Shown here: piece by piece, positions 3,611-57,994 of the stretch
How the letters are laid out: each line of letters starts with the position of its first letter
Numbering within the stretch: the first letter of the stretch is position 1
DNA from: Escherichia phage vB_EcoM_ESCO49
Sequence record: OM386663.1
Direction: 5' to 3' (one strand)
Length of the DNA stretch: 64,000 nucleotides
Notes under the pieces: model-generated
Databases searched by the model: none
What the model was told of the DNA's origin: nothing
Seen by the model: the letters and a program-made list of their open reading frames with translations, nothing else
Translations under genes and position numbers: made by a program

Positions 3611-11641
<8,031 letters not shown>

Positions 11642-23192: not shown

Positions 23193-23355
23193 GGAGAAAC
23201 CACAATGTACGTCAGAGACATACTGTATAAGTCTTCCTATAAAGTATAACTCTGTAAAAAAGCCCTGTCTAAAAATACTCTTCGGTAGCGAAAGGAAGAA
23301 TACTTATAGCAGGGCATTATTATTATTTTAATTGAGAGAGAGTAAAATAACTTGG

Positions 23356-23428
23356 AGAATCCGAAGGGACTTGAACCCTTATAAACCTGTTTTGCAGACA
23401 GGCACATATCCATTTCTGTCACGGATTC
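23356..23428 (-). tRNA. tRNA-Cys (GCA)
   Basis: acceptor 7 bp, T-arm AAGGG-TTCAAGT-CCCTT, anticodon stem CCTGT/ACAGG, loop CUGCAAA. Confidence 0.7.
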
Positions 23429-23436
23429 GAAATTGG

Positions 23437-23525
23437 GGGAAGATACCAGACTTGAACTGGTACACCGATTTCTCAGCTACTGGCAGTTTAGCAAACTGCT
23501 CCCTTACCTTTAGGGTTAATCTTCC
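23437..23525 (-). tRNA. tRNA-Ser (GCU), long variable arm
   Basis: 89 nt; T-arm, anticodon stem GCAGT/ACTGC, plus-strand loop TTAGCAA. Confidence 0.65.
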
Positions 23526-23526
23526 A

Positions 23527-24309
23527 TTATCTCTGTAATGCGCTCTTCATTTCTGGTGTTGCAATAGTATCAATCACACCAGTTTTACAAGCATCATCAA
23601 ACCAGTCTGGTAAGATACCTGCTAAGAACCCATTGATATTCGTTTTAAGGTACTCTGCAATAAGGGCAGCTTCTTCTTCAATCATCTGCACAACTTCATC
23701 TGCATAAGCTGTAATCTTTGAGATACCTTCATTAATCTTACTAACAGCCTGATTAGCTAAATCAGAAACAGTCTCAAGACCCTTATCAATAGCGTCTTGT
23801 AAGTCACTTAACACACCATTAACACTGTCTAGTGTGCTGTTAATCATGTCAATAGCTTGCTGACCATACTCTGTAGCAACACCCATAATACCACTAAATG
23901 GTGTACAACCAACTTGTTCTCCTGCTGCACCCATAACATTGGAGTATCCCTTTGCTACCTGCATACGTGATGAAAACTCATCAATAGACTTTTGACCGTA
24001 GTCTGTTAGGGTCTTAGTAGTTGCTGTAGTGCTTGTAAGGCTTGTTGTAAAGCTGTTTAGAAGGACTGTTGTGAGTCCAGCAGCAACAAGCTTCTCCTTC
24101 ATTGTAGGGTCTGTTACAGAGCTAATAGAGCTTACAAGTGATGTAGAGGCAGCTACGGTTCCACCGAGAACTGCTGCACCAGTAATAAGTGGGTTAGAAA
24201 ACCCTCTACCGGTTTTTAAGAGATTAAAAATCTCCTTACCTTGTTCTGTCATCTCTTTCATTAAGCACCTTTGAAATTGGTACTCCATATCGGATTCGAA
24301 CCGATACAT
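23527..24309 (-). CDS. hypothetical protein
   Basis: 260 aa; Ser/Thr/Ala-rich middle; embedded in tRNA region. Confidence 0.4.
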   Translation of the reverse strand: MYRFESDMEYQFQRCLMKEMTEQGKEIFNLLKTGRGFSNPLITGAAVLGGTVAASTSLVSSISSVTDPTMKEKLVAAGLTTVLLNSFTTSLTSTTATTKTLTDYGQKSIDEFSSRMQVAKGYSNVMGAAGEQVGCTPFSGIMGVATEYGQQAIDMINSTLDSVNGVLSDLQDAIDKGLETVSDLANQAVSKINEGISKITAYADEVVQMIEEEAALIAEYLKTNINGFLAGILPDWFDDACKTGVIDTIATPEMKSALQR

Positions 24310-24356
24310 AACACAGATTTTAAGTCTGGCCTCTCTGCCAATTGGAGTAATGGAGC
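24281..24356 (-). tRNA. tRNA, anticodon read as UAA (Leu-type), standard length
   Basis: acceptor GCUCCAU/AUGGAGU (G1-U72), T-arm ATCGG-TTCGAAT-CCGAT, 4 bp anticodon stem, loop CUUAAAA, A73. Confidence 0.5.
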
Positions 24357-24362
24357 ATTGGC

Positions 24363-24434
24363 TGGGGATGTTGGAATTGAACCAACTTCTTCGATTTCAA
24401 AGACCGAGGTTTTAACCTTGTAAACTAATCCCCT
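24363..24434 (-). tRNA. tRNA-Gln (UUG)
   Basis: T-loop TTCAATT; anticodon stem with one G-U; plus-strand loop TTCAAAG. Confidence 0.6.
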
Positions 24435-24442
24435 TTAAATCT

Positions 24443-25000
24443 TTACTTTCTCAGTGGATGAATAAAGAATGCCAACATAACTCTTTCCCTTGAGAATGCT
24501 CTTTCTTCTGGGACAACACTTTTTAGTTTCCATCCAATATAAATTCTCCAGTAAAACTGTTTACCAAAGATTTTAATTGATGGGATAAAAGCGAATAATC
24601 CCCAAGCATTGCTATTCCACATTAGGAGATAACCAGTCTGATTATCTTCAGGGTCAGAACTTACGCTGATATTACCTTTCCACTTAGTAACATCTTTTAC
24701 ATCTCTTCCTAATACATGGTAAGAGAAGTTATAAGCTTTGTTTCTCCAGAGCCATCCAACTCTCTGCATGTAGACACCCAGCTTACCAATCTTTCTAATC
24801 TTAGCCCATCTTTTAACGTGGCCTTCATCACCATCAATCGGGTTGTCATAGGTCTCCATCCATCTGAATCCAAAAGGTAGATGCCCTTTCTTCTCACTGT
24901 AGAATGGAACCACGAAAGGTGCTAAGATGACTGCTAGGGTTGCTGCAAATGGTTCTAGTAAAGCTAGGAAAATCCATGAAGCATACTTCAAATATCTCAT
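24443..25000 (-). CDS. hypothetical membrane protein
   Basis: 185 aa; hydrophobic N-terminus; between tRNA genes. Confidence 0.4.
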   Translation of the reverse strand: MRYLKYASWIFLALLEPFAATLAVILAPFVVPFYSEKKGHLPFGFRWMETYDNPIDGDEGHVKRWAKIRKIGKLGVYMQRVGWLWRNKAYNFSYHVLGRDVKDVTKWKGNISVSSDPEDNQTGYLLMWNSNAWGLFAFIPSIKIFGKQFYWRIYIGWKLKSVVPEERAFSRERVMLAFFIHPLRK

Positions 25001-25022
25001 CTAAATAGCCTCTTAAAATTGG

Positions 25023-25098
25023 TGTTCCAAGACGGATTCGAACCGTCACTAATACAAGGTTTGAGCTTGCATCCTCTGCCAATTGGGATACTGGAACA
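25023..25098 (-). tRNA. tRNA, anticodon read as CAA (Leu-type), standard length
   Basis: T-arm GACGG-TTCGAAT-CCGTC perfect; acceptor 7 bp with one G-U; loop CUCAAAC; A73. Confidence 0.5.
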
Positions 25099-25101
25099 TG
25101 G

Positions 25102-25173
25102 TACTCACTAAAGGACTTGAACCTTTTTCTTCATCTTGTAAGGGTGATGTTTTACCATATAAACTAAGCGAGT
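25102..25173 (-). tRNA. tRNA-Val (UAC), tentative
   Basis: T-arm AAAGG-TTCAAGT-CCTTT; D-arm GUUU-AUAUGGUA-AAAC; anticodon stem with one mismatch; plus loop TTGTAAG. Confidence 0.5.
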
Positions 25174-25271
25174 GTGAAAGAGGTCTGAAGTTGTGCCGCT
25201 AACTCAACTCCGTGGAATTTGTTACGGTCTTCAGTTGACACCAGCGGTCTTTCACTTGACCTCTGAATTGG

Positions 25272-25345
25272 TGCTGCTCACAGGACTCGAACCTGCATTT
25301 CCATCCTTACAAGGGATGTGTAATAGCCAATTATACGAAAGCAGC
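25272..25345 (-). tRNA. tRNA-Thr (UGU)
   Basis: perfect anticodon stem CATCC/GGATG, loop CUUGUAA; T-arm and acceptor present. Confidence 0.7.
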
Positions 25346-25354
25346 ATTATTTGG

Positions 25355-25426
25355 AGCATCCAGAGGGAATCGAACCCTCAACCTCAGTTTGGAAGACTGT
25401 AATTTTCCCGTTTAAACTATGGATGC
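25355..25426 (-). tRNA. tRNA-Gly (UCC)
   Basis: T-arm GAGGG-TTCGATT-CCCTC; acceptor perfect; loop CUUCCAA. Confidence 0.6.
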
Positions 25427-25435
25427 ACTAATTGG

Positions 25436-25508
25436 TGGAGAAGCAGGGAATTGAACCCTGTACTTAAGTTTGCAAAACTTATGTTTTAACCATGTAAACT
25501 ACATCCCC
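25436..25508 (-). tRNA. tRNA-Ala (UGC)
   Basis: anticodon stem TAAGT/ACTTA, loop UUUGCAA; acceptor GGGGAUG with G3-U70. Confidence 0.6.
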
Positions 25509-25517
25509 AATGTTTGG

Positions 25518-25590
25518 TACAGGTGGAGGGAATTGAACCCATCGTCTTACTGATTAAGAGTCAGCCGCATAACCATTTTGCTACACCTGC
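25518..25590 (-). tRNA. tRNA-Lys (CUU)
   Basis: plus loop TTAAGAG; acceptor 7 bp; T-loop TTCAATT with short GGG/CCC stem. Confidence 0.55.
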
Positions 25591-25600
25591 ATTAATTTGG

Positions 25601-25674
25601 TACACCTAGAGAGATTCGAACTCACACTGAGCAGATTCTAAGTCTGCTGCCTCTACCAGTTGGGCTATAGGTGC
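25601..25674 (-). tRNA. tRNA, anticodon read as UAG (Leu-type), standard length
   Basis: perfect anticodon stem GCAGA/TCTGC, loop CUUAGAA; acceptor 7 bp (G1-U72); D-loop with GG; A73; 5 nt variable loop. Confidence 0.55.
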
Positions 25675-25750
25675 ATTAAACCTTTTTAGAGAACTTCTAA
25701 GAACCTAAGCAACAAGGTTCCACAACAAGCCGTAATAACCTTAGAAGCCC

Positions 25751-25773
25751 TCTAAAAAGACCTAAAAAGGTCT
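25751..25773 (-). terminator. weak terminator-like hairpin (AGACC-n6-GGTCT plus U-run)
   Basis: 5 bp stem followed by UUUUAG on minus RNA. Confidence 0.3.
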
Positions 25774-25930
25774 TTGCATAGTCTTGTTTAATCCGGTGAC
25801 TAGAACCTTTGGAGAGCTTGATATTATCTCTTCTCCGTGACACCTGCTAGGTGCTTTATGAGTGTGTACGACAATACACGCGGGATACCAAAGCAACACC
25901 CTAATGAAGCTTGGCTTTAAATCTTATTAG

Positions 25931-26018
25931 GCGGTAAGTAAAGGAGTCGAACCCTCACCGTATCTCTACAGTGGCAACTGTTTTCAAGACAGTTTGGCTA
26001 CCATTAGCCGCTACCTAC
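25931..26018 (-). tRNA. tRNA-Ser (UGA), long variable arm
   Basis: 88 nt; anticodon stem AACTGT/ACAGTT 6 bp, plus loop TTTCAAG; acceptor 7 bp incl. one G-U. Confidence 0.55.
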
Positions 26019-26034
26019 CCCTAATAAGACTTTG

Positions 26035-26114
26035 GCATGGGACGGAGGAGTTGAACCCCTTTGAAACGGTGTTGGAAGCCGTTGCTCATGCCTTAGAGTC
26101 TTAACATCGTCCCA
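26035..26114 (-). tRNA. tRNA-like gene, identity unresolved (aberrant core)
   Basis: perfect 7 bp acceptor ATGGGAC/GTCCCAT, encoded CCA, T-loop TTCAACT; internal stem AACGG/CCGTT with 9 nt loop CUUCCAACA; extra nucleotides before D-arm. Confidence 0.4.
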
Positions 26115-26261
26115 TACTATAATTCGAAGCTTACCGTATTATCTCAACACTGTAAAGCCCCTTCTCAGATTATTTACATGTTCTGGAAAACATGAGATAC
26201 AGACCACCTCCCTACAGGAAGACCCGCTTAGGTCGTCTAAGTAATCTGCTAACTAAATTGG

Positions 26262-26340
26262 TCGAGGCGGCAGGACTCGAACCCGCATACTCCACTTACT
26301 CGGTTAACGTCTGTTTAGAAGACAGATGAGATACGCCCCG
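26262..26340 (-). tRNA. tRNA-like gene, identity unresolved (anticodon-like loop CUUCUAA, Arg-UCU-like, displaced)
   Basis: acceptor CGGGGCG/CGCCUCG all paired, T-arm GCAGG-TTCGAGT-CCCGC; perfect TCTGT/ACAGA hairpin sits where D-arm is expected. Confidence 0.35.
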
Positions 26341-26680
26341 TAATTATCTTTAAAGACTCTCTTAGAAAGCCCTTAAAGATGCCCACCTTATTAATCATAC
26401 CGTGGGCTAGTACGCCAAATTCTTTGATGAGGGATTGGAAGACCTCACTGGTGTTTAGCCTATCAAGCTACTGCCAGAAAAACATTGTCGTTTGCATTTA
26501 TTTTAAATTTGCAAAATAGACGCTACGCAACGAAAACTATTCAGAATATGTACAACAAATTTCCCCACATTGTGTTACGTCTAACGCTCATGTATTGGTG
26601 TTTGAATTATACATATTATGAAGTATTTTAGTTACTATAAAGTGGTCACATCTCAATGTCAACAACTTTATTGAAATTGG

Positions 26681-26753
26681 TACTGGTAGGTGGAATCGAA
26701 CCACCGACGTTCCCTTATCAGGGGAGTGTTATAACCTTCTTAACTATACCAGC
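26681..26753 (-). tRNA. tRNA-Ile (GAU)
   Basis: T-arm GGTGG-TTCGATT-CCACC perfect; plus loop TTATCAG. Confidence 0.6.
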
Positions 26754-26757
26754 TTGG

Positions 26758-26831
26758 AGGTTCAGATGGGAATCGAACCCACATTCATAGGGCTTATGAG
26801 ACCCTTGCATTACCTTATCTGCGACTGAACC
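26758..26831 (-). tRNA. tRNA with CAU anticodon (Met or Ile2)
   Basis: perfect acceptor GGTTCAG/CTGAACC; plus loop TTATGAG. Confidence 0.55.
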
Positions 26832-26838
26832 ATTTTGG

Positions 26839-45261: not shown

Positions 45262-46047
45262 TTAGTTCTTTGCGTCTAAGAAGGTTACTTCCGGTGAAGA
45301 GAAGACCGTCTCAATATCCTCATCAGTTCTTGCATAGATGTATGTATCTGCATCACTGCCAAATGTTACAGCTATCCTGTGATTGCTCTTCGACAGGTGG
45401 GTAACTAGAGCGTTACTTAGAGACATCTTTTCAACCGGAGGGTTACTTTGATGTATCTTACCTTTTCTTCGTCTGAAGAGGGTAACTGTATTGTCCGTGA
45501 ACACAACTACACCTGCAAAGTATTCTGGTTCACAGTAGTTTTTCCAACCTGAGTGTAACTCGTTGTACATCTCTGTCTCGTAGACATACAGATAAACATC
45601 TACGCTCTTCATAACCTGATTGATGATAACTGTGACAGCTTGAGGGTCCAGCCCACCGATACCTGCACCAATCATAGGTAGGCCAACCTTCTTCAACTGG
45701 TTAACTTCACAGTATCTGTTAAGTTGCTTCAAAGATGACTCTAAAGCACTGTATCGGGCGTCTTTACCAGTCTTAAGCTGAGTGTAAAGGTTAGCTATAC
45801 GACCTTGTTTTAAACGTGCTACAGAGAAGTTACCCAGTAAATTTTCACAGGGTTTGTGGCCTATACCACCTGCATAGATGTAAACTTCTGTATCGGTCTC
45901 ATATGCTTTTGGGTAAAGTTTAGAAATCTTGTCAGCGATACCTGCACCCATTAAATTCATACAGTTGCAACCGTGACCAATGATGTCAAACTTACCTTTA
46001 TCAAAGGCGTCAAAGATATCACCATTGATGATTTTTACAATACCCAT
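45262..46047 (-). CDS. macro-domain (ADP-ribose binding/processing) protein with C-terminal extension of unknown function
   Basis: 261 aa; N-terminal GDIF...DIIGHGCNCMNLMGAGIA and LPMIGAGIGG Gly-rich motifs. Confidence 0.6.
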   Translation of the reverse strand: MGIVKIINGDIFDAFDKGKFDIIGHGCNCMNLMGAGIADKISKLYPKAYETDTEVYIYAGGIGHKPCENLLGNFSVARLKQGRIANLYTQLKTGKDARYSALESSLKQLNRYCEVNQLKKVGLPMIGAGIGGLDPQAVTVIINQVMKSVDVYLYVYETEMYNELHSGWKNYCEPEYFAGVVVFTDNTVTLFRRRKGKIHQSNPPVEKMSLSNALVTHLSKSNHRIAVTFGSDADTYIYARTDEDIETVFSSPEVTFLDAKN

Positions 46048-53508: not shown

Positions 53509-53532
53509 ATTAAAAAGGCTCCCGTAGGAGCC
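53509..53532 (-). terminator. rho-independent terminator
   Basis: GGCTCC-TACG-GGAGCC plus U5, downstream of NAMPT-like gene. Confidence 0.65.
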
Positions 53533-53547
53533 TCTTATCATATACTT

Positions 53548-55329
53548 TTAAAGCTGCTTGTCAATAATATTTCGAATATCACCAAGAGTTGTGTAACCGA
53601 ACTGCTCAGAGTCGCTAAAGACTAAACGTAAAGCACAAGCTGGGTGGTCAAGTACGTCTGCAAAACTCTGGAATCCATAGCCATCTACAGCTTTCAGCTT
53701 ATCACCATCCCACATAGGTGCTACACCACCAAAGGCAGACTTCTTAACACCACTATCTGTTTTAGGGTCTTTTGCAAGCATAATCTCTTTACCACCAATG
53801 CTTGCAAGAGTTGCTTTGACAGCAAATGCAAAGGTGTCACGAGTCATGTACTGGTAAGTGTAAGAGCCTACACCAAATACTACGTTAGAGCTTGCAAAAC
53901 CCATTTCATACAGACGATTCAGGATTTCGTTTGCACGTTCCAGCGTGATAGAGTCACCATAGATAAGGCCGATGTGCTCATCCAGTACCTTAAACCCTTT
54001 AGAGTTAATAGTTCCCCCAAAGATGTTGTACAGTGTCTTAATAGCTCCATCAATTTCAGCTACAGGACGTGTTACAACATTTGCAGAACCAACCATATAA
54101 GCATTCTTCAACATCACCGTATCAGCAACTTCAAAGTCTTCTCTGTCAACAACCATTTCGTAGCCTTCTGACAGTAGCCATCCAGCAATACCATAGTCGA
54201 TGTTTTCAAGCTTCATGTTCAGAACAGCATTCAACATTGTGTCGCTGGCTTCCAGCTTGCTTAGGTGCTCGTAATAAGCCTTCTTAGCACATTCTAAGTG
54301 GATTGCTTTATAACCTGTGACAATATGTACAGGGTCTCCAGAGTCAGGACGAATTACCAGTTTGCCATCACGTTCCATAATTTCTTTACGAAGTGCTGGT
54401 AAAATTTCTGACACAGCTCTCCAGAAGTTATAAGTGTCTGAAACAATACTTGCAATACCAGTTGGGTAAGTTTCTGTTAAGAAACGACGGAAGGTTTGCA
54501 ACTCACCTTTAAATCGTCTTTCTTCTTCAACCAACTCGTTACCACCTTCCCAAGCAATGTTTGCACACATTACAGAGTGTTCAGTGGCTGGTACAGAGCT
54601 TCCAATATCAGAGATTGGATAGGTCTGCCCATAGATACGTTTAGCCGTGTATACAGCAGGGAAGCTATCAGTCCCTTTAAAGCTGGTTAAGTGGCCTACA
54701 GCATTGAATGCGTCATCAGTAAAGCCTGACATACCACGCATAGCAAAGTCATGGCACTGATAAGGTAAATGCAAGTCATTGTCGCAAGTAAGGTCAGCCC
54801 ACTTCTTACAGATACGTTTGTAGTGTAATGCAATAGTAGCAATGGTGCAAGCTTTCCAAATCTCAGCAGAGAAAGCATCCTCCAGATACCCTGCTACCCA
54901 ATGGAAACCTGAAACAGTGTTCTGGAAGACAATCATTGGGACACGCATCGGGACAACTGTGCCTTCTTCTACAGCGTATACTTCAACCGGTAGATAACCT
55001 AAGTCGTGAAGTGCTTCCCAATGCTCTCGACCGATAGCATCTTTACCCAGAACACCATTCATGACTTCTAAGATTTCGTCAACTGCTTCTTTTTTATCAC
55101 GTTCAAAGAAAGTGGCGTTCCAGTGGTCTATTAAGTAATCTTTAACAAAACGTTGAATACCAAAAGCCACTACACCATCAATTGCTAAGGGGCTGTTAAA
55201 CCATTTATCACTACGTGGTGTCAGGTTGAACATCAAGTATTCTGTTGCACTAGGGTACTGGTAAACATGACCAGATTTGTAAGCATCTGCGTTTAAACCT
55301 GCTGGTACTGCATAAAGTGATTTAGTCAT
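53548..55329 (-). CDS. nicotinamide phosphoribosyltransferase family protein (NadV/NAMPT-like; Namat not excluded)
   Basis: 593 aa; motifs ADAYKSGHVYQYP, HDFAMRG, SVPATEHSV, IRPDSGDP. Confidence 0.8.
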   Translation of the reverse strand: MTKSLYAVPAGLNADAYKSGHVYQYPSATEYLMFNLTPRSDKWFNSPLAIDGVVAFGIQRFVKDYLIDHWNATFFERDKKEAVDEILEVMNGVLGKDAIGREHWEALHDLGYLPVEVYAVEEGTVVPMRVPMIVFQNTVSGFHWVAGYLEDAFSAEIWKACTIATIALHYKRICKKWADLTCDNDLHLPYQCHDFAMRGMSGFTDDAFNAVGHLTSFKGTDSFPAVYTAKRIYGQTYPISDIGSSVPATEHSVMCANIAWEGGNELVEEERRFKGELQTFRRFLTETYPTGIASIVSDTYNFWRAVSEILPALRKEIMERDGKLVIRPDSGDPVHIVTGYKAIHLECAKKAYYEHLSKLEASDTMLNAVLNMKLENIDYGIAGWLLSEGYEMVVDREDFEVADTVMLKNAYMVGSANVVTRPVAEIDGAIKTLYNIFGGTINSKGFKVLDEHIGLIYGDSITLERANEILNRLYEMGFASSNVVFGVGSYTYQYMTRDTFAFAVKATLASIGGKEIMLAKDPKTDSGVKKSAFGGVAPMWDGDKLKAVDGYGFQSFADVLDHPACALRLVFSDSEQFGYTTLGDIRNIIDKQL

Positions 55330-55374
55330 CTTTTAATCTCTCTCAAAATGGGGTTTTTAAGCCCCTATAAAGTT

Positions 55375-56280
55375 TTAATCAAGGTTTGCTACAGTAACTT
55401 GACCATAATGTGTTAAGCCACGGTCTTTAGCTTCCCCTAAAGAGTTTGTAGTGTAGATATGGTCAATGCCATTGTCAAGAAGGTTTTCAACATCTTTAGA
55501 GAAGATACCATGTGTTACATAAAGTTCCACACGTTTTGCACCTGCTTCACGAAGATGTTTCGCTGCTTCTATGAAGGTTCGACCACCATCACAAATATCA
55601 TCAAGAATCATGACAGTTTTATCTGTCAAATCAACATCATCAAGGATTCGCATACCAGTTATTTCACCAGTCTTAAGGTTGCGTACTTTAGACATTGTGA
55701 TATATGGTTTATCCACCTCTTTAGCAGTCTCTGCAATCTTCTTAGAAGCACCTGCATCTGGGGCTACTAAGTAATCAATCAGAGGGTCATTTGCATAGTG
55801 GACTGCAATCTCCTTTTGAGGAATACTTTGGAAGCAGTTGAAAAGGTTATCTGGAACGTAACTATGAGGGTCAACTGCACAGACTGCATCAAAACCCATT
55901 GCATTAACCTGTTGTGCAAACACTTTCAAAGCTGCTGCATCACCTTTAAACATGTGACGGTCGTAACGTGCATTTGGCAAATAGTAAAAGATAGCAGTCT
56001 TCATAGCAAACTTATGAGGTACTAAATCATCAATTGCTTCTTTAGCAAGTGCCACAGCAAACAATGTGTCCTTGTCATAGCCTTTTACAATAATAACCAC
56101 ATTGTTGATGGATGATGCTGCATAAGCAGTAAAATCAACAAGCTCTTGTGAAAAGTGTCCACCAATCTCACCAGAAGGGAACTGGATGATGTTAAACTCT
56201 TCTTCATGAGACCCTTTTGTCGGTGAATGAATTATAACACGAATCGATGTCTTCATAGTTTTCCCTCTCTTTATTCCCAA
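55375..56280 (-). CDS. ribose-phosphate pyrophosphokinase family protein (Prs-like; ADPR-PP synthetase not excluded)
   Basis: 301 aa; FPSGEIG, VAPDAGASKK, MILDDICDGGRT motifs; true start may be the internal Met (MKTSIRV). Confidence 0.65.
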   Translation of the reverse strand: MGIKRGKTMKTSIRVIIHSPTKGSHEEEFNIIQFPSGEIGGHFSQELVDFTAYAASSINNVVIIVKGYDKDTLFAVALAKEAIDDLVPHKFAMKTAIFYYLPNARYDRHMFKGDAAALKVFAQQVNAMGFDAVCAVDPHSYVPDNLFNCFQSIPQKEIAVHYANDPLIDYLVAPDAGASKKIAETAKEVDKPYITMSKVRNLKTGEITGMRILDDVDLTDKTVMILDDICDGGRTFIEAAKHLREAGAKRVELYVTHGIFSKDVENLLDNGIDHIYTTNSLGEAKDRGLTHYGQVTVANLD

Positions 56281-56678
56281 ATAACCTTTCTACGCTTTAT
56301 CTGGATAATGTTCTTTTTACAATATTCGATAGCTTCATCTATTGACCCAAAACTTTCCTTCTCCACAAAGAAGCGAACTTCACCATCTTGTATCTTTTGT
56401 TCTTCGGCTGTTGGCTCTTCAAGTATTTTACTTGATACTTCTCTGTTAATCTGCATTACATACTCGAAAGAGTTCTTCTTGTACCCAACTATTTTAATGT
56501 AACCCCTCTGGCGAAGACGATTGAACCGAGTTGACTTGTTTGTCTTGGATACATCTGGAAATTCCTTGTCATGGATACTACGTATCTGTGAGCAAGTAAA
56601 TGTTTTATCATAACCAAACTCATTATACAGGACTTTTAACAGTTCAATCATAACATCACTCCCAAATAACTTTTGCAT
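56271..56678 (-). CDS. hypothetical protein, paralog family member A1
   Basis: start placed at MQKLFGSD by alignment with A2; C-terminal ...EAIEYCKKNIIQIKRRKVIWE. Confidence 0.5.
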   Translation of the reverse strand: MQKLFGSDVMIELLKVLYNEFGYDKTFTCSQIRSIHDKEFPDVSKTNKSTRFNRLRQRGYIKIVGYKKNSFEYVMQINREVSSKILEEPTAEEQKIQDGEVRFFVEKESFGSIDEAIEYCKKNIIQIKRRKVIWE

Positions 56679-57120
56679 GTTTAACTTTAATAAGATGCTC
56701 TTTGCAGTGCTCAATAGCTTCATCTAGTGTTTTAAACATAACATCCGCGATAAAGTATCTTACGTCAGGTTGTACATCAACATCTTTAACCTCAGATAAG
56801 TTTGATTTTTGTGAACTCCCCAACTCTTCACGCGTGTTATTTAGCATCCTTGACAGTTGTATGTGCTTCTCCATAAAGGCTCGATTTAATTGATTAATAC
56901 TTAGTCTACCTTTGCTTTTTACCTGCCCTACAGTCAGCAGTACACCAGACTGTCTTAACATTGTTAGATACCCACGGGTATTACTGATTGACTGGCCTCG
57001 TATAAAAAGGCTATTCTCTCTTAATGCGTCAATTGCTTCGTTAGAGTCAAAAGTGTTTTCTGTCCCGAAGGTTTTGTATAAAATCTCTATTACGTGCTTC
57101 TGTAAATTGCAAAAAATCAT
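56656..57120 (-). CDS. hypothetical protein, paralog family member B1
   Basis: 154 aa; MIFCNLQKHVIEILYKTFGTENTF...HCKEHLIKVKHAKVIWE. Confidence 0.5.
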   Translation of the reverse strand: MIFCNLQKHVIEILYKTFGTENTFDSNEAIDALRENSLFIRGQSISNTRGYLTMLRQSGVLLTVGQVKSKGRLSINQLNRAFMEKHIQLSRMLNNTREELGSSQKSNLSEVKDVDVQPDVRYFIADVMFKTLDEAIEHCKEHLIKVKHAKVIWE

Positions 57121-57141
57121 AGTGTATTCCTAATCAAATGT

Positions 57142-57564
57142 TTAAACTTCTTCCCAAACAATACGCTTTCTTTTTGTTTGGATAACCGTTCTCTTACAAT
57201 GCTCAACTGCTGCCTCCATACTGGTAAAGTGTATGTCACCTATGAAGTATCCTACTTCACCTACACTAACCTCTTCATCCTTTTGTTGATGGCCATTACA
57301 ATTTAGAAGCACATTTTTAGCTTTGCTTTCATTGATTCTCATAAGATACTCATTATTAAATCCTGTCGCTCCAACAACACTAATGTACCCACTTTTACGT
57401 AATCTGTGAGACCAATTAGCTTTATCCCTGATTGAAGCATGTGGTAGATATTTATTAAAAACCTTAGTTAGTTGTGAGCCAGAAAATGTTTTATCATAGC
57501 CAAAATTTATATACAGAACCTTCAGAAGCTCAAACATGTTATTACTCCCAAATAATTTTTGCAC
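57142..57564 (-). CDS. hypothetical protein, paralog family member A2
   Basis: 140 aa; MQKLFGSNNMFELLKVLYINFGYDKTF...HCKRTVIQTKRKRIVWE. Confidence 0.5.
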   Translation of the reverse strand: MQKLFGSNNMFELLKVLYINFGYDKTFSGSQLTKVFNKYLPHASIRDKANWSHRLRKSGYISVVGATGFNNEYLMRINESKAKNVLLNCNGHQQKDEEVSVGEVGYFIGDIHFTSMEAAVEHCKRTVIQTKRKRIVWEEV

Positions 57565-57994
57565 GTTTTACTTTGATAATATACTTTTTGCAGTGTTCAA
57601 CAGCATCTTGGAGTGTATCAAACATCAACTCACCAATAAAGAATTTTATGTCTGGAGACACACCTACACCACTTAAGTCTTTTTGCTGCTCTTCACGTTG
57701 GTTTCGTGGCTCTTTAAGTAAATAGTCTAGCTGAATGTGCTTCTCAATAAAACCTCTATTTAATTGGTTGATGAGCATCCTCCCTTGTTGCTTAATCTGT
57801 CCTACCACGATGAGCACACCCCACTTTCTCATCTGAGTCAAGTAGTACCTGATGTTTGCTATTGGCTGTTTTTTGATGTAATCACTTCCTTCTTGTAGGG
57901 CTTCAATAGCTTCATTTGAGTCAAATGTGTTATCTGTCCCAAACTTATTGTATAGAATCTCAATAATTCTTTTTTGGAAGCTGCAAAAAATCAT
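57542..57994 (-). CDS. hypothetical protein, paralog family member B2
   Basis: 150 aa; near-collinear with B1. Confidence 0.5.
   Translation of the reverse strand: MIFCSFQKRIIEILYNKFGTDNTFDSNEAIEALQEGSDYIKKQPIANIRYYLTQMRKWGVLIVVGQIKQQGRMLINQLNRGFIEKHIQLDYLLKEPRNQREEQQKDLSGVGVSPDIKFFIGELMFDTLQDAVEHCKKYIIKVKRAKIIWE

Follow-up and report, generated by a model that had tools for sequence, protein, structure and literature searches.

The 64,000-nucleotide window of the Escherichia phage vB_EcoM_ESCO49 genome (OM386663.1) analyzed here belongs to a Felixounavirus, and two adjacent genes in it very probably form the Felixounavirus NARP1 operon, whose Adps and Namat enzymes would rebuild NAD+ after an NAD+-depleting host defense has cleaved it. 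Judged by their sequences and by gene order, they are the syntenic ortholog of genes 79–80 of phage Bas63 (Escherichia phage JohannRWettstein; bas63_0079/0080), the operon that led to the discovery of NARP1 (Adps + Namat) (bioRxiv 10.1101/2024.02.11.579819). What this analysis established directly, each point within the scope given below, is that the genes are orthologous and syntenic, that they are intact and full-length with their catalytic residues conserved, that the Namat-specific adenine clamp is present and that an NMN adenylyltransferase (NMNAT) is absent.

The open reading frame list gives a 593-aa frame at 53548..55329 and a 301-aa frame at 55375..56280; both lie on the minus strand and together span 53548–56280, and the Pfam, TIGR and NF profiles confirm that a NAMPT-like and a Prs-like gene lie side by side there, as a preliminary description of this DNA had stated. 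That description placed the NAMPT-like gene upstream, but on the minus strand the order is reversed; adps is transcribed before namat, and a Prs-family gene immediately preceding a NAMPT-family gene is the canonical NARP1 layout (Table 1). The length of 301 aa first given for the Prs-like protein also needs correction. The first codon of the 301-aa frame, a TTG, shares bases with the stop codon of the ORF before it. The true adps start is almost certainly the ATG at 56256, which has GAGAGGGA upstream and gives a protein of 293 aa beginning MKTSIRV, in agreement with both the Bas63 annotation and published Adps sequences.

Table 1. Features of the adps-namat locus and a candidate accessory gene (window coordinates)
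Feature	Position	Strand	Description
adps	55375..56256	-	Prs-family ADPR-PP synthetase (predicted), 293 aa; first in operon
namat	53548..55329	-	NAMPT-family nicotinamide ADP-ribose transferase (predicted), 593 aa; second in operon
adps/namat intergenic spacer	55330..55374	-	45 nt; includes GAGAGAG, the ribosome-binding site for namat, as well as a weak hairpin
Terminator-like hairpin	53513..53536	-	Consensus scan; 10-bp stem with 5 G-C pairs, T tract
Macro-domain gene (candidate accessory, membership putative)	45262..46047	-	261 aa; possible unlinked Adpp-like ADPR-1''-phosphate phosphatase

The hairpin in the spacer has a predicted folding energy of -9.2 kcal/mol and a z score of -1.65, with 15 of 200 shuffled sequences folding equally well or better; this is not significant, and we rejected it as a terminator or attenuator. 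Since it is unconvincing as a terminator, adps and namat are probably co-transcribed. The terminator-like hairpin that begins 12 nt past the namat stop codon is likely the 3′ end of their transcription unit; it comes from a consensus scan, and the total of such sites in the region does not exceed the shuffle expectation. A promoter scan of 52.9–58.9 kb returned 17 sites where chance alone would give 14.6, so no promoter is claimed. Directly upstream of adps, four paralogous ORFs form a 1.74-kb cassette; they received no Pfam assignment and match phrog_29478, a family of unknown function.

The locus matches 260 phage records, nearly all of them Felixounavirus or related Escherichia, Salmonella or Shigella phages, and the best match is phage ESCO50 (98.5%). 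Felixounaviruses are candidates for phage therapy. Bas63 belongs to the same genus and shares the gene order, the protein lengths of 293 and 593 aa and the 45-nt spacer, and the two loci are collinear on both sides, with gp77/gp78 homologs upstream and gp82/gp83/rIIA homologs downstream, so that in each the operon has the gp78 homolog on one side and the gp82/rIIA block on the other. Namat is 98% identical to Bas63 gp80, and Adps is 79% identical to gp79 in a gapless alignment. Over its C-terminal 110 aa Adps is ~95% identical, whereas the 5′ 450 nt of the gene are only 58–79% identical in DNA sequence, and the N-terminal 180 aa diverge from the tested Bas63 allele (53–87% identity per 30-aa block); the low 5′ identity reflects the presence in the window of the commoner of two Felixounavirus alleles. 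The loci differ further in that Bas63 lacks the four-paralog cassette and the window lacks gp81. The published Adps and Namat homolog tables contain near-identical proteins of ESCO50, finno, wV8 and FelixO1 and label the Felixounavirus Namats "Adps-associated" (bioRxiv 10.1101/2024.02.11.579819). The synteny, the identities to gp79 and gp80 and these tables support the preliminary preference for NARP1 over NadV/NatV salvage.

The Prs-like protein matches the profiles Pribosyltran (PF00156), Pribosyl_synth (PF14572) and ribP_PPkin (TIGR01251, 125 bits). We assign it to the Adps clade, not to cellular Prs, from its near-identity to Felixounavirus Adps proteins already catalogued (292 of 293 residues are identical in ESCO50 Adps, which, like Bas63 Adps, is in Osterman Suppl. 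Table 1), from PHROG scores (329 bits in phrog_619, compared with 193 bits for E. coli Prs) and from the published tree. Pairwise BLAST was uninformative on this point beyond the genus, giving 70 bits to the Adps of the Bacillus phage Zuko and 65.5 bits to E. coli Prs. K190-V-R192 aligns with the K-R-R catalytic loop of Prs once the register is shifted one residue by eye, the K-x-R pattern is kept in Adps of both Gary and Zuko, and the catalytic lysine (K162 in SPbetaL1, K197 in B. subtilis Prs) is present.

Namat matches NAPRTase (PF04095, E 5e-35), NAMPT_N (PF18127) and NF006629 (469 bits), and its best PDB matches are the SPbetaL1 Namat structures 9W5W/9W5X at 432 bits, compared with 181 bits for Xanthomonas Nampt and 144 bits for human NAMPT. 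The NAMPT motifs named in the preliminary description are found as HDFAMRG (193–199), PATEHS (247–252) and IRPDSGD (326–332), except that its "DSYK-type" motif reads DAYK (15–18). Residues D15, Y17, F195, R198, D221, H251, R327 and D329 are conserved and align with D13, Y15, F189, R192, D215, the catalytic His, R306 and D308 of SPbetaL1 Namat, and so make up a Nampt-like catalytic core. The published Namat-specific adenine-clamp signature, the SCH motif GSxΦxΦxΦTRD (PMC12774641), is present as GSYTYQYMTRD at 488–498 with aromatic Y490 and Y494; the residue before TRD, the third of the small-residue positions, is Met, where Asn or Val is usual, and the same Met occurs in Bas63. Vibrio phage K567 has a Nampt-type homolog, only 28% identical, that reads GGGLLQQSDRD at this site and does not have the aromatic clamp motif. 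The earlier statement that sequence cannot separate the two specificities is thus outdated for Namat. The SCL loop, P38-R-S-D-K42-W43-F, has Lys at position 3 followed by Trp, as described for Bas63, and since the adenine-stacking residue is taken to be an Arg at position 3 or the residue after a Lys or Tyr, the loop is predicted to supply it.

The SPbetaL1 proteins (9W5W/9W5X; PMC12774641) are characterized both biochemically and structurally, and the ESCO49 proteins share with them the catalytic core, the SCH motif and the SCL stacking residue. They differ in that Felixounavirus Namat has insertions of ~85 aa (343–427) and ~15 aa (259–273) that SPbetaL1 lacks, and in that its SCL carries Lys-Trp in place of the SPbetaL1 Arg. 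For Bas63 Namat, which is 98% identical, an AF3 model is already published. Adps and Namat are also homologous to those of the NARP1-AP operon (Adps-Adpp-Namat) of Vibrio phage Gary (bioRxiv 10.64898/2026.01.28.702374), with ~40% identity for Namat; compared with the operon of phage Noelle, which is near-identical to that of Gary, Adps shows 41% identity over 188 aa.

By analogy with these homologs, the ESCO49 operon would act on the ADP-ribose and nicotinamide to which NAD+ is cleaved by defense systems, among them SIR2-HerA/Nezha, DSR1/2, type I Thoeris and SEFIR. Adps is predicted to move pyrophosphate from ATP onto the 1'' position of ADP-ribose, forming ADPR-PP, and Namat to exchange that pyrophosphate for nicotinamide, giving NAD+ directly, so that the route should require neither an NMN intermediate nor an NMN adenylyltransferase. 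We infer this chemistry and the anti-defense phenotype from the literature by way of Bas63 (genetics and metabolites) and SPbetaL1 (enzymology and structure). Deletion of Bas63 genes 79–80 sensitizes the phage to SIR2-HerA (bioRxiv 10.1101/2024.02.11.579819); Bas63 Adps failed to purify, and the in vitro enzymology was done with the SPbetaL1 proteins instead.

The same two protein families could instead carry out classical salvage, as they were annotated before 2024, with the Prs-like protein making PRPP, the NAMPT-like protein making NMN and host NadR or NadD completing NAD+, as a general boost to nucleotide and NAD+ pools and not as counter-immunity. The database names and the Pfam and NCBIfam assignments do read Prs and NadV, E. 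coli has NadR and NadD, and Namat also makes NMN from PRPP in vitro. However, when both donors are offered Namat uses only ADPR-PP, no product could be measured for the SPbetaL1 homolog in a Prs-type assay, and SPbetaL1 Namat clamp mutants lose anti-defense while retaining NMN synthesis. In vivo, ADPR-PP was detected, and only when wild-type Bas63 and a defense system were both present, and the operon of this phage still rescues NAD+ when the host lacks both pncC and nadR (bioRxiv 10.1101/2024.02.11.579819). The adenine-clamp motif is conserved in the ESCO49 protein, although it would have no role in an enzyme that used only PRPP. Classical salvage as the function of the pair is thus very improbable.

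The NARP2 (NadV-NatV) system of Vibrio phage KVP40 likewise restores NAD+ with a NAMPT-family enzyme, but it requires PRPP and an NMN adenylyltransferase. As the preliminary description had it, no such gene is visible in the window: E. coli NadD and NadR as tblastn queries returned a best E of at least 0.95, and a Pfam scan of 20 non-structural ORFs of ≥150 aa found no nucleotidyltransferase domain. In Bas63 25–70 kb, which covers the region corresponding to sequence outside the window, the best tblastn E was 0.24 and the annotation lists no NMNAT. Three ORFs beside the K567 NadV gene were taken as possible NatV queries, and the two that were Pfam-scanned proved to be an LpxC homolog and an ORF with no domain. 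Within the scope of the NadD/NadR tblastn and Pfam searches, then, the NMNAT that the Nampt + Nmnat combination of NARP2 calls for is not found in the window or in this stretch of Bas63.

A further reading would add to the NARP1 explanation without replacing it. The Macro-domain gene (Pfam Macro, E 8.7e-8) is a conserved homolog of Bas63_0095 that lies 7.5 kb downstream of namat, and its product might be the third enzyme of an extended NARP1-AP pathway, converting ADPR-1''-phosphate (the aRES product) to ADP-ribose for use by Adps and Namat. The Gary and ESCO49 genomes both encode a phrog_335 Macro protein, but the Gary gene (158 aa) lies between adps and namat, whereas the ESCO49 protein is 261 aa long and has an extra C-terminal domain. 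By sequence comparison its homology to Adpp is real but distant. It scores 380 bits in phrog_335 ("phosphatase"), where the characterized Gary Adpp scores 171 bits, and it is 27% identical to that protein (E 2e-13) over the whole macro domain. The two have HxCNC, NxYxQ and GLPxIGxG motifs in common, and the catalytic Lys and Asp of the TARG1/DarG type are replaced in both (by Q90 and G131 here). One Macro homolog is named "Poa1p_like" by NCBI, and three relatives, with Macro proteins only 34–41% identical to this one, keep the gene 7–10 kb downstream of namat.

Against this, the AF2 model of the Macro protein (pLDDT 88.7) matches the folds of DarG, TARG1 and Poa1p, and in fold and profile searches DarG and TARG1 rank level with or slightly above Poa1p. 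Members of the family are found in 2,851 phage records, T4-like phages among them, and in the T4-like phages they lie in unrelated neighborhoods; the conserved spacing from namat is confined to one phage lineage and may be plain synteny, and the extra C-terminal domain of ~100 aa has no known function. We sought independent linkage between Macro genes and NARP1 and rejected it, as the two-domain homologs show lineage synteny only and the single-domain homologs lie in non-NARP1 contexts. NARP1-AP is recognized by a Macro phosphatase within two genes of NARP1, and here the nearest Macro gene is more than 10 genes away. An extended pathway in ESCO49 seems rather doubtful, and it is similarly unlikely that FelixO1-like phages including Bas63 run a split NARP1-AP with an Adpp-type phosphatase encoded 7–10 kb from adps-namat.

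The operon itself is not new as a discovery, its mechanism and its presence in Felixounavirus having been published in 2024. The finding matters for annotation, since in public records the two products still go by "ribose-phosphate pyrophosphokinase" and "nicotinamide phosphoribosyltransferase", names that point to the wrong chemistry. If the split arrangement did exist, it would have been missed by the published NARP1-AP screen because that screen reached no further than two genes from NARP1, and the published value of 15% of NARP1 phages with a phosphatase would be an underestimate. The phosphatase-assisted pathway would then range more widely than is known, and Felixounaviruses would be predicted to escape aRES in addition to SIR2- and TIR-type NAD+ depletion.

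The adjacent NAMPT-like and Prs-like genes that the preliminary description had placed at 53548-56280 were recovered as two ORFs occupying exactly that span (see the table), and we consider them with high confidence to be a NARP1 operon, the phage NAD+ rebuilding route that comprises Adps (an ADPR-PP synthetase of the Prs family) and Namat (a nicotinamide ADP-ribose transferase of the NAMPT family). This reading, already proposed in that description, is borne out by orthology with gp79/gp80 of phage Bas63, collinear flanks, a clamp motif and published tables.

Features of the ESCO49 window discussed in the text
Feature	Position	Strand	Remarks
namat (NAMPT-like ORF)	53548..55329	-	593 aa; NAPRTase/NAMPT family matches
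adps (Prs-like ORF as called)	55375..56280	-	301 aa; ribose-phosphate diphosphokinase family matches
Four paralogous ORFs	56271-57994	-	140-154 aa; A-B-A-B order; phrog_29478; directly upstream of adps
Macro-domain protein	45262-46047	-	261 aa; Pfam Macro E 8.7e-8; same strand, 7.5 kb downstream of NARP1

Family profiles agree with the original assignments, matching PF04095 (E 5e-35), PF18127 and NF006629 (469 bits) in the NAMPT-like ORF and PF00156, PF14572 and TIGR01251 (125 bits, cutoff 113) in the Prs-like ORF, and each gene is complete and uninterrupted. The observation of an adjacent pair is thus confirmed with two small corrections. The NAMPT-like gene had been called the upstream one, but on the minus strand, where both genes lie, transcription reaches the Prs-like gene first. 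Its 301 aa reading starts at a TTG which itself overlaps the stop of the ORF before it, whereas an ATG at 56256, preceded by a GAGAGGGA ribosome-binding site, gives a protein of 293 aa with the N-terminus MKTSIRV, the start found in all annotated relatives. The only hairpin in the 45 nt adps-namat spacer is weak (z -1.65), and another, of 10 bp and with a T tract, is found at 53536-53513, 12 nt past the namat stop, so co-transcription of the two genes is plausible; neither promoter-like nor terminator-like sites were above chance in our scan.

NARP1 was first found in the Felixounavirus Escherichia phage JohannRWettstein (Bas63), as genes 79-80 (bioRxiv 10.1101/2024.02.11.579819). In the Bas63 record (MZ501086) these genes encode 293 and 593 aa; window Adps is identical to gp79 at 232 of 293 positions (79%) and Namat to gp80 at 583 of 593 (98%), both without gaps. 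The flanks are collinear and 95.6% identical on each side, upstream between window 58900-57991 and the gp77/gp78 region and downstream between window 53496-52900 and the region from gp82 onward. Gene order in the window is also that of Bas63, with structural genes, 19 tRNA genes (clustered at 23353-27708 on the minus strand, as is typical of FelixO1-like phages), rIIA/rIIB, and NrdB, NrdD and NrdG homologs. Window 53000-57000 matches 260 phage records by Megablast, nearly all of them Felixounavirus or FelixO1-like phages of Escherichia, Salmonella, Shigella and Citrobacter, with ESCO50 the best (98.5%). ESCO50, finno, wV8, FelixO1 and Bas63 are among the Adps homologs and "Adps-associated" Namats in the published supplementary tables (bioRxiv 10.1101/2024.02.11.579819), and window Adps differs from the tabulated ESCO50 protein at 1 residue in 293; the pair is therefore already in the NARP1 catalogue. 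It is a known system, in the operon position and genus of the founding example and with near-identical proteins in the published tables.

Deletion of Bas63 genes 79-80 lowers plating on SIR2-HerA cells ~20-fold and deepens NAD+ depletion, rescue by Bas63 is still seen in a pncC nadR double-deletion host, and ADPR-PP (m/z 720.010) is seen only when wild-type phage meets the defence system (bioRxiv 10.1101/2024.02.11.579819). Purified Adps of SPbetaL1 converts ADPR and ATP to ADPR-PP, from which SPbetaL1 Namat makes NAD+ with nicotinamide; given both ADPR-PP and PRPP, this Namat uses ADPR-PP alone (bioRxiv 10.1101/2024.02.11.579819). Since Bas63 Adps could not be purified, we still infer NARP1 chemistry for Felixounavirus. 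The Adps loop K190-x-R192, which corresponds in alignment to the Prs catalytic loop K-R-R, is also conserved in Adps of Vibrio phage Gary and Bacillus phage Zuko, and the phrog_619 profile scores window Adps at 329 bits vs 193 bits for E. coli Prs. The first ~225 of the 547 positions of another profile, phrog_12872, match Adps and the remainder Namat, which suggests that some phages probably encode an Adps-Namat fusion. The Zuko pair is followed directly by a 136-aa protein (4005-4415 of the sequence L014), annotated as a phosphatase and with weak HAD-hydrolase hits, which may be a different accessory enzyme belonging to the NARP1 operons of Bacillus phages.

Namat can be told from the Nampt that is paired with Nmnat in the salvage route NARP2. 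Its catalytic core is conserved in the window (D15, Y17, F195, R198, D221, H251, R327 and D329), and the Namat-specific "selectivity clamp" has been defined crystallographically (PMC12774641; PDB 9W5W/9W5X). The SCH part of this adenine clamp, GSxΦxΦxΦTRD, is present as G488-SYTYQYM-TRD498, and the SCL loop has Lys42 then Trp43, the variant described for Bas63 (PMC12774641). At the SCH site the Nampt-type homolog of Vibrio phage K567 reads GGGLLQQSDRD, without any of the clamp aromatic residues. Human NAMPT has a similar non-aromatic sequence there. Against PDB entries (phmmer) window Namat scores 432 bits with SPbetaL1 Namat vs 181 with Xanthomonas Nampt and 144 with human NAMPT. The reported lack of an NMN adenylyltransferase (NMNAT) in the window agrees with tblastn using E. 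coli NadD and NadR (best E 0.95) and with Pfam scans, in which 20 non-structural ORFs of at least 150 aa had no nucleotidyltransferase domain. As for an NMNAT elsewhere in the genome, the same queries found none in Bas63 25-70 kb (best E 0.24), a stretch including the ~23.6-46.7 kb counterpart of the genome part outside the window, and the curated annotation of that stretch lists none. No phage with both NARP1 and NARP2 was reported in the founding paper (bioRxiv 10.1101/2024.02.11.579819).

Several differences from Bas63 and SPbetaL1 leave the NARP1 classification unchanged. The window has a 1.74-kb block (57990-56257) between the gp78 homolog and adps that Bas63 lacks and that encodes the four paralogous ORFs of the table. 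These ORFs share a conserved C-terminal ...EAIEHCKK.II..KR.K.IWE, and some relatives also carry the cassette; in the 56271-56723 ORF translation probably skips the first 15 codons, as alignment with its paralog begins at MQKLFG. The junction with Bas63-like sequence lies inside adps, with 58-79% identity over its first 450 nt and 87-98% beyond them. This 5′ half (55717-56256, minus strand; N-terminal 180 aa) is dimorphic in Felixounavirus, with a recombination junction within the gene. Identity to the window allele is 80% or more in ~155 phage records and 60-80% in ~97, the latter having the Bas63/FelixO1 allele, so the experimentally studied form is the minority one; Namat and the C-terminal part of Adps keep about 95-98% identity. 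Gene 81 of Bas63 (345 nt, hypothetical; 30509-30853 of the Bas63 sequence L008), between namat and the gp82 homolog, is absent here (window junction 53495). Compared with SPbetaL1 Namat, the Felixounavirus protein has insertions of ~85 aa (aa 343-427; window 54049-54303, minus strand) and ~15 aa (aa 259-273; 54511-54555, minus strand); in Gary Namat a shorter insertion follows the RPDSGDP strand at the same place.

NAD+ cleavage by the aRES defence yields ADPR-1''-phosphate, a compound that NARP1 is unable to use; the Macro-domain phosphatase Adpp, found in ~15% of NARP1 operons in a survey of genes at most 2 positions from NARP1, forms with it the NARP1-AP pathway characterised from Vibrio phage Gary (10.64898/2026.01.28.702374). 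The window Macro-domain protein, a homolog of Bas63_0095 ("putative phosphatase"), can be aligned with Adpp of Gary (KNV71_gp137) along the full macro domain (27% identity, E 2e-13). Both match phrog_335 (380 and 171 bits), have nearly equal Pfam Macro scores and share the motifs HxCNC, NxYxQ and GLPxIGxG. At the TARG1 catalytic positions Lys84 and Asp125 the window protein has Q90 and G131 and Adpp has Q and A; the window protein thus lacks the catalytic Lys and Asp of TARG1/DarG. It also carries a C-terminal beta-rich domain of ~100 aa. In three contigs a Macro gene lies 7-10 kb downstream of namat, its product 34-41% identical to the window protein; these contigs share the broader phage lineage of the window, and family members are found in 2,851 phage records, among them T4-like phages in which the neighbourhood is unrelated. 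That the protein is a functional, unlinked Adpp seems rather unlikely to us, and it is to this candidate Macro-domain lead that the residual novelty of the locus is limited.
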